From an uncultured Gammaproteobacteria bacterium (GTDB lineage: Bacteria > Patescibacteriota > Patescibacteriia > Veblenbacterales > UBA10138), in assembly GCA_964453605.1 (NCBI GenBank), contig CAYVOI010000001.1, positions 676,095 to 740,094 of the forward strand: DNA of 64,000 nt, read 5' to 3'. The position numbers were made by a program, and so were the translations under genes. This document shows positions 37,430 through 40,757 of the stretch, one piece after another; within the stretch, counting starts at the first letter, position 1, and the number at the start of each line of letters is the position of its first letter. The notes beneath the pieces are model-generated. The model searched no databases. It saw only the letters and a program-made list of their open reading frames with translations, and was not told the DNA's origin.

Positions 37430-37930
37430 CTACTCTTCGGGTTCGCTTGTAGCGGTGCCTCGCAACCTCTTTTCGGCTTCATAAATATAGCCATCACGAT
37501 AACTTTCATAACCATCCTTCTTGGCTTCCTCATAGGGTGGTTTGGTCGCATACTTCGCCATTAAGTCAGGAAATGCGGGTCCGTCTTCAGCCATTTCACG
37601 TTTAAAAAATTCAGGAAAATCATCGAGTAGGTCCAAGTATTTTTCCAGGCAAGTTACATAGGAAGCTACCCCTGTATAAGTTTGTAACTCATTTTCATAG
37701 TCAAACGTTCTCCCAAAATGTGATATTGCTTGAGACGACACAGCGCCCAAATTGCCAAGATAATCAGCAATATGGTTTGTGTCTATACCCTTTATACCAA
37801 CCCGTTCCTCTACTCGAGCCCATACTTGTTTATATCTACTTATAGCAACTTCAGCACGTTCACGTAACTTCAACCAATCATCATTACTAGGTTTACTCTC
37901 CAGGTGTTCCATTGACTCACGTTCAGGCAT
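37430..37930 (-). CDS. hypothetical protein (low-GC insertion between atpD and atpC)
   Basis: 166 aa, acidic, no recognisable motif. ~43% GC against ~58% in the flanks. Confidence 0.45.
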   Translation of the reverse strand: MPERESMEHLESKPSNDDWLKLRERAEVAISRYKQVWARVEERVGIKGIDTNHIADYLGNLGAVSSQAISHFGRTFDYENELQTYTGVASYVTCLEKYLDLLDDFPEFFKREMAEDGPAFPDLMAKYATKPPYEEAKKDGYESYRDGYIYEAEKRLRGTATSEPEE

Positions 37931-37967
37931 AAATTTACTAAGCTAAATCCCTGGGAAGTCTTGGACA

Positions 37968-39338
37968 TTAAGCATTGACTTCCTCAATGCTCCCCTTCAT
38001 GTAGAACGCTTGCTCGGGTTTTGAGTCGTGCTTGCCTTCCAAAATTTCCTTGAACCCGCGTACCGTGTCTTTGAGGCTCACATACTTGCCTGGCGTGCCG
38101 GTGAAGGTTTCGGCCACAAAGAACGGCTGGCTGAGGAACCGTTGAATCTTGCGGGCGCGAGCCACGGTCTGCTTGTCCTCTTCCGAGAGCTCATCCATAC
38201 CAAGAATGGCGATAATATCTTGCAAATCTTTGTAGCGCTGGAGCACACGCTGCACGTCGCGGGCAACCTGGTAGTGCTCCTGACCAAGAATGAGCGGGTC
38301 AAGAATGGTGGAGCTGGAATCGAGCGGATCCACCGCGGGGTAAATGCCGAGCTCGGTGAGGGCACGGTTCAGTACGACTGTAGAGTCGAGGTGGCCGAAG
38401 GTGGTAGCAGGTGCTGGGTCAGTGAGGTCATCAGCTGGCACGTACACGGCTTGCACGCTAGTGATGGAGCCTGACTTGGTGGAGGTAATGCGCTCTTGTA
38501 GCTCACCCATGTCGGTAGCCAGAGTAGGCTGGTACCCTACGGCCGAAGGAATACGTCCGAGGAGCGCCGACACCTCGCTGCCTGCCTGGGTGAAGCGGAA
38601 AATGTTGTCAATAAACAGAAGCACGTCTTGTTTTTCCTCGTCACGGAAGTACTCAGCCATAGCAAGGCCGGTTAAGGCCACGCGAGCACGGACACCCGGC
38701 GGTTCATTCATCTGCCCGAAAACCAAGGACGTTTTAGGGAGCACGCCTGAGCCTTTCATTTCGTGGTACAGGTCGTTGCCCTCGCGTGAGCGCTCGCCAA
38801 CACCGGCAAATACTGAGAAACCACCGTGCTCAGAAGCAATGTTACGAATGAGTTCTTGAATAACGACAGTTTTACCCACACCTGCACCGCCGAACAAACC
38901 AACCTTGCCACCCTTAACGAATGGGCAGATGAGGTCAATGACTTTGATGCCGGTTTCAAACACCTCAGCCTTGGTCGACTGGTCGGTAAACTTTGGTGAG
39001 GGACGGTGAATAGGGTAACGGGTTTTTGATTTTACCACTGGCTGGTTGTCGAGCGGGTTGCCTAAGGTATCCACCATGCGGCCTAGGGTTTCCTTACCAA
39101 CCGGCACAACAATAGGGCCGCCGAGGTCGGCAACTTCCACCCCGCGAGCCAGGCCGTCGGTTGTGCCCATAGCCACGGTGCGCACGCTGCCGCTCCCTAG
39201 GTGCTGCTGCACCTCAAGGACCAAGGTTTCGCCGTTTGGCATTTTAATTTCCAGCGCCTGAAAAATGGCGGGGATGTCTTTCGGGAACGCCACGTCGACC
39301 ACGGGTCCGATAACTTGGGTAACTGTGCCGGTGTTCAT
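37968..39338 (-). CDS. atpD: ATP synthase F1 beta subunit
   Basis: Walker A 'GGAGVGKTV'. 'DELSEEDK' DELSEED-like loop. Confidence 0.95.
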
Positions 39339-39380
39339 AAGGTTTAGGGTGAACGAAAAAATTTAGGTAATAGTTACGAG

Positions 39381-40316
39381 TTAGCCTTCCACGGCCACAC
39401 GGCCGCCGATTATCTCGGCGAGCTCAGCCGTAATGCCAGCTTGCCTGGCCTGGTTAAACTGGAGGGTGAGGGAATCTATCATGTCTTTGGCGGCGTCGGA
39501 AGCGTTACGCATGGCCAACATACGGGCCGAGTGTTCTGAAGCGTCGGACTCGAGCAGCGCTTGGTACACCTGCACCTCAATGAGCCTAGGCAACAGGTCT
39601 TCCAGCACTTCGTCGGGCGTGGGCTCAAACAGGTACTCGTAGCTAACGTGGGTAGCGGTAGTGTCTGCCTCACGCACCTTGGGCTCACCCGGGAGCCTGC
39701 CACCGCCGAGTTCAGCGTCAGGCTCTGGGACAATCGGCAGCAGCTGGCGAATACGTGGTTTTTGGATCAGGGGGGAAATAAAATCGGTGTAGGCCATGAC
39801 TACGCGGTCGTAACGGCCGCTGAGGTAATCATCTATCAAGAGCTTGGCGATGGGCCGCACTTCTTCTACCCGAGTGGTGAGGTCGGCTTTGGTAAACTCT
39901 GCTACCACGGCTTGGCCGTAGCGGAACATAATGTCCCTGCCCCTCCGGCCCACAGCCACCAAATCTGCCCCGAGCTCCACCTGTTGACTTTGGTGCTTAC
40001 GGATAAAAGCGTTGGCACGGTTTGTTACTTGATGGTTAAAGCCACCACAGAGCCCACGGTTGGAAGTTACGAGTACCAAACCAATGCGTTTTACCTCATC
40101 GCGCTTTTGGAGCAACGGGTGGTGTGATGGGTCGGTGCGTGAACTTAGTTCGGTGAGCAGACTCCACCCCAAAGCGGCGTAAGTACGCGTGGCGAGCACG
40201 TTCTGGACCGCCCGGCGCATTTTAGCAGCCGACACCAGCTCCATCGCCTTGGTGATCTGGCGGGTGTTCTTGATGGAGCGAATGCGACGCTTAATTTCGC
40301 GAGTGGCTTGCGGCAC
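39381..40316 (-). CDS. atpG: ATP synthase F1 gamma subunit
   Basis: 'IKRRIRSIKNTRQITKAMELVSAAKMRRA' N-terminus and 'LTLQFNQARQAGITAELAEIIGG' C-terminus, both typical of gamma. Confidence 0.9.
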   Translation of the reverse strand: MPQATREIKRRIRSIKNTRQITKAMELVSAAKMRRAVQNVLATRTYAALGWSLLTELSSRTDPSHHPLLQKRDEVKRIGLVLVTSNRGLCGGFNHQVTNRANAFIRKHQSQQVELGADLVAVGRRGRDIMFRYGQAVVAEFTKADLTTRVEEVRPIAKLLIDDYLSGRYDRVVMAYTDFISPLIQKPRIRQLLPIVPEPDAELGGGRLPGEPKVREADTTATHVSYEYLFEPTPDEVLEDLLPRLIEVQVYQALLESDASEHSARMLAMRNASDAAKDMIDSLTLQFNQARQAGITAELAEIIGGRVAVEG

Positions 40317-40355
40317 AAAAGTAAAATCAAAAATTAAAAATCAAAATGCAAAAAT

Positions 40356-40757
40356 CTAATCTTGTTTCTGCCGCCAATCATAGTATGGCAGTAAGTCTTT
40401 TAGCTTTATGAGTTTACCTTTATCTAACACAACGTCTGTTTCTAAGTTCGCCTTACTAACCTGCCACATAAATTCGCGACACCTCCCACATGGCGAAAGA
40501 ATGACATCATAACCATCGTTATCTTTTGCAACGGCTACTATTTTCTTTATTACGTATTCGCCGTTAGTAATCATGGACCCGATAGCATTATGCTCAGCGC
40601 AAAATCCCATACCAGAACTAGCGTCAATGCAGACACCAAGGTAGAGATTATCCCTGTCTGTTACCAAAGCACATCCAACGGTACCCGACTGAAATTCTCC
40701 AGTTTTATTTGGCTTCACTATAGCTGCAGCTTTTGCTATAAGGTCTTCATTAGTCAT
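40356..40757 (-). CDS. cytidine/deoxycytidylate deaminase-family protein (blasticidin-S-deaminase-like). Low-GC gene inserted between atpA and atpG.
   Basis: Zn-binding motifs 'CAEHNAI' (H/C-A-E) and 'SPCGRCREFM' (PCxxC). 133 aa. ~40% GC. Confidence 0.7.
   Translation of the reverse strand: MTNEDLIAKAAAIVKPNKTGEFQSGTVGCALVTDRDNLYLGVCIDASSGMGFCAEHNAIGSMITNGEYVIKKIVAVAKDNDGYDVILSPCGRCREFMWQVSKANLETDVVLDKGKLIKLKDLLPYYDWRQKQD

Follow-up and report, generated by a model that had tools for sequence, protein, structure and literature searches.

How did two AT-rich genes come to lie between the F1 genes of an F1Fo ATP synthase operon, whose gene order is among the best conserved in bacteria? The question is raised by a 64,000-nucleotide (nt) stretch of DNA (the window), part of an 876,493 bp record from a small-genome bacterium of the Patescibacteria, or Candidate Phyla Radiation (CPR). 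The window contains a complete atp operon on the minus strand (44738..36965). Its genes encode, in order, an AtpZ/I-like protein, subunits a, c, b, delta and alpha, a 133-aa deaminase with the fold of cytidine deaminases (CDA) and blasticidin-S deaminases (BSD), subunits gamma and beta, a protein of 166 aa, and subunit epsilon. Apart from the two interposed open reading frames (ORFs), this is the canonical order a, c, b, delta, alpha, gamma, beta, epsilon on a single strand. The reading that we favour, with a probability of roughly 0.6, is that the two guest genes have different histories. The deaminase gene would have been acquired horizontally, and the 166-aa gene would be a resident of the clade that is present here as a foreign allele, both within a wider CPR habit of using F1 junctions as slots.

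Pfam identified the flanking genes as those of the alpha, gamma, beta, epsilon and delta subunits, with ATPase_gene1 (AtpZ/I-like) as the first gene of the operon. An earlier note on this DNA had described two tightly packed, co-directional ORFs of low GC content inside the operon, and this description stands in full. Both ORFs are exactly where they were placed (Table 1), all genes are on the minus strand, and the gaps around the two guests are 4, 39, 37 and 21 nt. The GC contrast is also upheld by exact computation per gene, with 0.413 for the deaminase gene and 0.425 for the 166-aa gene against 0.53-0.60 for the nine atp genes. At third codon positions (GC3) the values are 0.373 and 0.341, respectively, against 0.59-0.68. 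These are the two lowest GC3 values (z = -4.4 and -4.9) among the 60 non-overlapping window ORFs of at least 80 aa, and in 20-codon blocks GC3 switches sharply at the borders of the guest genes. The last ~60 codons of atpA (40762-40950) have GC3 of 0.40, 0.65 and 0.35, compared with ~0.65 elsewhere in atpA. A short part of the 3′ end of atpA may belong to the imported tract.

Among species-representative genomes, the atp loci most similar to that of the window are from Patescibacteria metagenome-assembled genomes (MAGs), including Falkowbacteria and Magasanikbacteria. The locus L164 (GCA_964349095.1) shares with the window the order atp operon, UvrD-type helicase, DciA, small membrane protein and pheS. 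The clade has both AT-rich members (L009, L164 and L165, 36-39% GC) and GC-rich members (the window, 55%, and L163, 52.5%). Several loci with CPR-like synteny and a beta subunit 74-83% identical to that of the window (L009, L012, L020, L024 and others) are titled 'uncultured Gammaproteobacteria bacterium'. These titles look like placeholders or mislabels.

The deaminase gene appears best explained by horizontal insertion, because it is absent from the atpA-atpG junction of L009 and L164, the spacer behind it is homologous to that of L009, and its nearest homologues (≤72% identity) are in unrelated contexts. L009 and L164 are the relatives whose loci cover this junction (atpA 78 and 75% identical to that of the window), and in both atpG directly follows atpA. 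The 39-nt spacer between the deaminase gene and atpG aligned to the atpA-atpG spacer of L009, the nearest of the relatives that lack the insert, with a local score of 49. Shuffled sequences scored 18 ± 3.3, and 0 of 2000 reached the observed score. The spacer is therefore ancestral, and the inserted DNA was essentially a bare ORF placed after the atpA stop codon. We also considered whether the C-terminus of the deaminase derives from an old atpA tail. This was rejected, as the two share only a 7-mer (equalled by 668 of 5000 shuffles) and the tail is native to the deaminase family.

The subfamily to which the deaminase belongs is large, centred on the CPR and without a fixed neighbourhood. We found 7535 homologues at E < 1e-5, and the top 120 (59-72% identity) are from Parcubacteria, Peregrinibacteria, Anaerolineae and unnamed MAGs. 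The genes are mostly co-directional with, and close to, the upstream gene. Their neighbours include a solute:sodium symporter, an APH-type kinase with a methyltransferase, glnA, endonuclease III (nth), an amidase, pilC with a gene for a 23S-rRNA-intervening-sequence protein, MacB-type permeases, a GNAT acetyltransferase and a uridine-kinase-like gene. For the close homologues (≥58% identity), gene GC against flank GC has a slope of 0.54, and the gene is more AT-rich than its flanks in each of the eight GC-rich hosts; distant homologues follow the GC of the host (slope 0.87). The shallow slope and the AT-rich genes in GC-rich hosts are the signature of repeated transfer from AT-rich donors. The same junction also appears to have been filled elsewhere. 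In L128, a metagenomic locus with a CPR-like atp operon, a deaminase homologue (2362-2760, 56% identity) lies between atpA and atpG. The two deaminases rank only at about 160 of 185 as relatives of each other, which rules out shared vertical descent. Thus, the atpA-atpG junction was filled twice independently. Phages are not an obvious vector, since a single match at 55% identity was found among 2.9 million viral contigs.

Two other homologues are of interest for their surroundings. In L094 (1677-5594), a deaminase homologue is followed by a gene for a 23S-rRNA-intervening-sequence protein (PF05635), and the two lie between a T2SSF gene that resembles pilC and a pilin-like gene, another conserved cluster with guests. 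In L093 (780-1340), a close homologue (67% identity) has a GC3 of 0.31 in a host of ~0.6-0.73. It is flanked by inverted repeats of ~20 nt (ACCTATCCCTCTAACTCAC / GTGAGTTAAGGGGATAGGT), and no other locus had such a mobile-element-like frame.

The history of the 166-aa gene is different. A word-indexed search with the protein returned only the protein itself; eight relatives (28-44% identity) came to light in an exhaustive HMMER scan. Three long-form relatives (160-165 aa; P0122, P0123 and P0125) are encoded exactly between atpD and atpC in L163, L164 and L165, at 30-35% identity to the window protein, so that four of the five long-form members occupy this location. The ORFs of the family are intact and conserved in length, with the motif EKYLxLLDxFPEFxxKE...AFPD and a C-terminal GYxSYxxAYIYE. 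The conserved slot, length and motif make the 166-aa gene an old, selected resident of the atpD-atpC junction in this clade. In the relatives only 1-4 nt separate the gene from atpD (37 nt in the window), and their long-form gene is predicted to be translationally coupled to atpD. Identity within the family scales with that of atpC. Where atpC is 87% identical the 166-aa family is 42% identical, and at 70-74% for atpC it is 28-35%, which is consistent with vertical inheritance and very rapid evolution.

The composition of the window copy is another matter. The GC3 of the homologues is native, with 0.59 in L163, 0.31 in L164 and 0.29 in L165, compared with 0.60, 0.33-0.37 and 0.30-0.33 in their neighbours. 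We hold with moderate confidence that the window allele is a refill of the slot from an unsampled AT-rich donor, because its composition is foreign here while the copy in the GC-rich L163 is ameliorated. By identity alone xenologous replacement is undecidable. Values of ~30-35% to all relatives fit a fast vertical clock, and only the composition argues for import.

What the 166-aa protein does is most likely one of two things: it is an F1-associated accessory or regulatory protein, or it is an unrelated passenger. The protein is acidic, as the earlier note had said, with an isoelectric point of 4.8. The AlphaFold2 (AF2) model is a compact, all-alpha helical bundle predicted with confidence (pLDDT 81.7, pTM 0.81). 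Foldseek against PDB and BFVD gave nothing at E ≤ 0.001, a sequence profile search of PDB gave nothing, and there was no family in Pfam, NCBIfam or PHROGs; the best PADLOC match had E = 0.047. Neither in sequence nor in fold did these searches reveal similarity to a described ATP synthase subunit or inhibitor.

We consider it unlikely that the long form is a genuine lineage-specific accessory or regulator of the ATP synthase, comparable to zeta, IF1, AtpTheta or an assembly factor and present in stoichiometry with F1. Its exact position between atpD and atpC, the short gap to atpD in the relatives, the intact ORF with motifs kept despite ~30% identity, and the confident helical model are what such a protein would be expected to have. 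On the other side stand the lack of resemblance to known subunits or inhibitors of the ATPase, the members of the family outside atp operons, and the many unrelated genes in the same slot of other CPR. L009 is equally close to the window, and its atpD-atpC slot holds an unrelated membrane protein of 107 aa. We are similarly doubtful of the combined proposal that CPR F1 junctions are recurrent expression slots and, at the same time, that the long-form family is a new lineage-specific regulator, inhibitor or assembly factor associated with ATP synthase.

The earlier note had seen both genes as recent, independent insertions unique to this lineage, which functionally couple a deaminase and an uncharacterised protein to ATP synthase. 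The strongly foreign GC3 and sharp borders of both genes, and the absence of the deaminase from the junction in the closest relatives, are in its favour, and for the deaminase the proposed horizontal insertion is borne out by that absence, by the homologous spacer and by homologues in unrelated contexts. For the 166-aa gene the proposal fails. The note had itself named, beforehand, inserts of native composition in relatives as the finding that would speak against it, and the synteny of L163, L164 and L165 provides exactly this. Nor does anything show a coupling of the deaminase to bioenergetics, as members of the subfamily are found behind glnA, nth, an amidase, pilC, MacB-type permeases and a symporter, among many unrelated genes. 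As a whole, we judge this explanation distinctly improbable.

A further alternative makes both genes old vertical members of the operon, with low GC maintained either to tune translation below that of the stoichiometric subunits or by escape from GC-biased gene conversion. The positional conservation of the 166-aa family, with divergence that tracks atpC, agrees with this, as does the L128 deaminase, which is at the same junction and also low in GC3. It is difficult to reconcile with the native GC3 of the GC-rich L163 homologue, with the deaminase missing from L009 and L164 and not closely related between the window and L128, or with distant deaminase homologues that track the GC of their hosts. 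We give it somewhat less credence still. An assembly or binning artefact, in which AT-rich fragments of other organisms were spliced into the operon, is hardly credible: one Logan contig stops ~120 nt after the deaminase gene, inside atpG, but the atpA-deaminase-atpG and atpG-atpD-166aa-atpC junctions were recovered in independent Logan assemblies of two runs, which makes a chimera unlikely, with both deaminase junctions on a single contig, both junctions of the 166-aa gene on contigs of the two runs, guest ORFs that are intact and fit precisely between genes, and relatives with a homologue at the same position. The contig that stops in atpG is 15 kb long (L001, Logan SRR12313480), and neighbouring Logan contigs of 3.4 kb begin at its end point and stop just after atpC. 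The breaks at these junctions may reflect strain variation.

Several observations count against the reading of two histories that we prefer, or limit how far it can be taken. The deaminase of L128 has a GC3 below that of its atp neighbours (0.25 vs. 0.36-0.49), and low GC could be partly intrinsic to the deaminase family and not solely a mark of recency. The deaminase is without the ribose-binding Asn42 and Glu44 of tetrameric cytidine deaminases (T-CDA), which makes its substrate uncertain. The short forms of the 166-aa family (125-137 aa; P0126, P0128 and P0129) are in unrelated contexts, not beside atp genes, and one long form (P0124) has no atp neighbour on its short contig; these weaken the case for a role specific to ATP synthase. 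Co-transcription of the guests with the atp genes is a prediction from sequence. Machinery or scars of insertion were also not found. There were no significant direct or inverted repeats flanking the deaminase gene, the 166-aa gene or a third insert between pheS and pheT (see below), no conserved cassette flanks among 18 deaminase loci, and nothing in tRNA and Rfam scans of the window. We did not find the features of a mobile cassette, such as an attC-like site, a target-site duplication or a recombinase. Finally, the atp genes have a DNA identity of 62-70% to those of the sampled AT-rich relatives, with a longest exact match of 20 nt. This makes homologous recombination with these relatives an implausible route of import.

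The preferred reading suggests a simple course of events. The deaminase would have been acquired horizontally as a bare ORF and placed between the stop codon of atpA and the ancestral spacer. The slot behind atpD would have been filled by a low-GC allele imported from an unsampled AT-rich relative, and would not represent a novel type of insertion. Rare illegitimate or short-homology insertions presumably take place, and selection inside an essential, strongly transcribed operon may keep only those ORFs that are co-directional, terminator-free and precisely intergenic. The ORFs that survive would gain free expression via the operon promoter.

The signals along the operon are compatible with such expression (Table 1). 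A promoter-like site precedes the first gene and a terminator-like hairpin follows atpC. The signal scan of the operon found no promoter or terminator signals that separate the guest genes from the atp genes. With nothing comparable between the two ends, co-transcription is plausible, and the guest genes and atp genes may form one transcription unit; the signals support this weakly. Of the earlier note's expectation of co-transcription, the shared direction, the packing and the lack of internal signals hold, and we infer co-transcription itself from these. The hairpin at the end of the operon is very strong and overlaps a promoter-like site of the downstream ArsR-type helix-turn-helix (HTH) gene (36581-36868). 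This gene is absent from that position in L163, and in L164 a 254-aa uncharacterised gene is found instead.

Table 1. Features of the atp operon and its two guest genes, in window coordinates and in order of transcription.
Feature	Coordinates	Strand	Basis or remark
Promoter-like site TTGACG-17-TATACT, 5′ of first operon gene	44765..44793	-	Consensus scan only
atpZ/atpI-like, small membrane protein	44460..44738	-	PF09527 ATPase_gene1
atpB (subunit a)	43683..44456	-	PF00119 on identical Logan contig
atpE (subunit c)	43289..43552	-	PF00137
atpF (subunit b)	42712..43344	-	Gene call on Logan contig is 166 aa (42712-43212)
atpH (delta/OSCP)	42300..42707	-	Pfam
atpA (alpha)	40762..42267	-	Pfam
Guest gene 1, 133-aa three-cysteine zinc deaminase, CDA/BSD fold	40356..40757	-	Motifs CID...FCAEH...PCGRCRE...LLPYYDW
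AT-rich 39-nt spacer before atpG GTG start	40317..40355	-	Homologous to L009 atpA-atpG spacer
atpG (gamma), GTG start	39381..40316	-	Pfam
atpD (beta)	37968..39338	-	Pfam
Guest gene 2, 166-aa acidic all-alpha protein	37430..37930	-	Long form of a small uncharacterised family
atpC (epsilon, N and C domains both present)	36965..37408	-	Pfam
Terminator-like hairpin, 19-pair stem, 3′ of atpC	36870..36911	-	

The deaminase matches PF00383 in Pfam. It scores 57-64 bits against the NCBIfam CDA models, in every case below the cut-off. An AF2 model built on 34 homologues has a pLDDT of 89.6. Its top Foldseek matches are BSD and T-CDAs with equal scores (E 5e-9 to 1e-7, TM-score ~0.7). The zinc motif is C53-A54-E55 (within FCAEH) with P89-C90-G91-R92-C93; the stretch F52-C53-A54-E55 and the second motif are invariant or nearly so in 34-35 members of the subfamily, so that the three cysteines of the zinc site and the catalytic glutamate are all in place. 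The PCxxC motif and the CDA/BSD fold of the earlier note are thus retained, and its HAE motif is in fact CAE. C43-I44-D45 is invariant across the subfamily, and Y125 and W128 are near-invariant and align with the Y and W of 3OJ6. In BSD, aromatic residues of this kind (Tyr/Trp behind LLP at the C-terminus) close the active site. There was no match for the deaminase in the PADLOC defence models.

With T-CDA (EC 3.5.4.5; e.g., Bacillus subtilis Cdd, 1JTK, TIGR01354), the deaminase shares a size of ~133 aa, the three-cysteine zinc site and catalytic glutamate (C53-A-E55 and PCGRC in the window), and the predicted fold, an alpha/beta/alpha sandwich of ~130 aa. The model matches many T-CDAs at E ~1e-8 and a TM-score of ~0.72 (0.70-0.73). 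In T-CDA, Asn42 and Glu44 hydrogen-bond the ribose (PMC9897663). At the corresponding GxNxEN motif, the window protein has the invariant Cys43 and Asp45 instead, and one residue fewer. It also differs from T-CDA in its BSD-like aromatic C-terminus and in its scores on the equivalog models, 57.7 bits for TIGR01354 (cut-off 113.65) and 56.7 bits for NF004064 (cut-off 74). BSD (Aspergillus terreus 1WN5/2Z3G) is its top Foldseek match (2z3g, E 5e-9), NF005314 is its best NCBIfam model, and its C-terminal LLPYYDW aligns with LLPsIYAW of 3OJ6. The identity to Bsr of Bacillus cereus is 32%. Unlike BSD it has a CID motif instead of NVYH, and it scores 63.9 bits on NF005314, for which the cut-off is 131 and Bsr scores 209. 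This strong match of Bsr makes NF005314 a Bsr-type family, and the window deaminase lies outside it. The deaminase is about equidistant from true cytidine deaminases and blasticidin-S deaminases. We regard it as a putative distinct subfamily of the three-cysteine T-CDA/BSD fold, predicted from its conserved residues to be catalytically competent. It may act on a cytosine nucleoside or an analogue, for pyrimidine salvage or for detoxification, and would do so independently of the ATP synthase.

Guest genes at F1 junctions are not limited to the window. We surveyed the 80 atp loci that a search with the beta subunit had retrieved, with lineage taken from the record title, and defined guests by gaps between F1 genes of at least 230 nt that contain co-directional ORFs. 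The sample is small and should be seen as a lead, not a census. Guest ORFs were found in L009, L010, L021, L023, L030, L031, L033, L035, L059, L070, L071 and L076. About half of the CPR-titled loci carry them, and among loci titled as other phyla there was one clear case, from Dehalococcoidia (L080). The cargo proteins are mutually unrelated, and their genes are often more AT-rich than the atp genes. They include PQ-loop/SemiSWEET-like, PD-(D/E)XK_3 (PDDEXK_3) and AdoMet-decarboxylase-like (AdoMet_dc) proteins, a PsbP-like secreted protein, a cyclophilin and small membrane proteins. A secreted cyclophilin-type peptidyl-prolyl isomerase (225 aa) is at the atpD-atpC junction of L128 (5499-6176). 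Our literature search turned up no publication about guest genes in the atp operons of CPR, nor on the phage-defence candidate PDC-S18, which is represented in the window itself. A third AT-rich guest gene (30831-31742, minus strand) lies there between pheS (31755-32789) and pheT (28711-30825). It encodes 303 aa with a GC of 0.40 and a GC3 of 0.43 (z = -3.3). The protein has an N-terminal NucS-like/PD-(D/E)XK motif and DUF5655, and matches PDC-S18 of PADLOC over its full length (E 1.9e-94).

Other regions of the window are also of unusual composition or content. A Ham1/ITPase-like gene (62566-63174) and a 258-aa ORF without a Pfam match (54310-55086) have moderately low GC3 (0.44 and 0.46, respectively). 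The most AT-rich stretch of the window (19901-20500; GC 0.36, minimum 0.22) is largely intergenic; a sigma-70-like gene (19457-20011) lies on one side of it and, on the other, a small HTH gene (20346-20618) beside a diversity-generating retroelement at 20623-23482. The retroelement consists of a reverse transcriptase (20623-21729, minus strand), a bAvd-like gene (21634-22014, plus strand) and a 123-nt template repeat (22062-22184). A variable repeat (22545-22667) occupies the 3′ end of the target gene (22541-23482, minus strand; 313 aa) and shares 87% identity with the template repeat.

What the locus means depends on how far these leads hold. A whole superphylum would tolerate small foreign genes in its F1 junctions and fill the same junctions repeatedly, which bears on how reduced genomes gain and express new functions without promoters of their own. 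Two uncharacterised families are also flagged, a CDA/BSD subfamily and a possible CPR-specific protein associated with ATP synthase. The deaminase subfamily is large and mobile with altered ribose-binding residues, and it may target modified cytosine nucleosides or nucleoside antibiotics. The host organisms are thought to run the ATPase mainly in reverse, and a clade-specific helical protein could modulate it. If neither lead holds, the deaminase is still a clean case of horizontal transfer into the interior of an operon, with one insertion junction reconstructed exactly.

Among known systems, the 166-aa protein can be compared with regulators of the F-ATPase, i.e., the C-terminal domain of epsilon, alphaproteobacterial zeta, mitochondrial IF1 and cyanobacterial AtpTheta. 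It resembles them in that it is small and soluble and is encoded in or beside the atp operon in one clade. It differs from them in that no similarity of sequence or fold is detectable, and in that some members of its family are not associated with atp genes. Hotspots of horizontal gene transfer with conserved core genes on either side, and foreign islands rich in AT, are part of general bacterial genomics. We consider the phenomenon in the window to be a variant of these. As in such hotspots, AT-rich foreign genes lie between highly conserved genes, and the same junctions are reused by different lineages with different cargo. Unlike in such hotspots, the junctions are inside an essential operon, and the cargo consists of one ORF, with no promoter of its own and no mobile-element features at its flanks.

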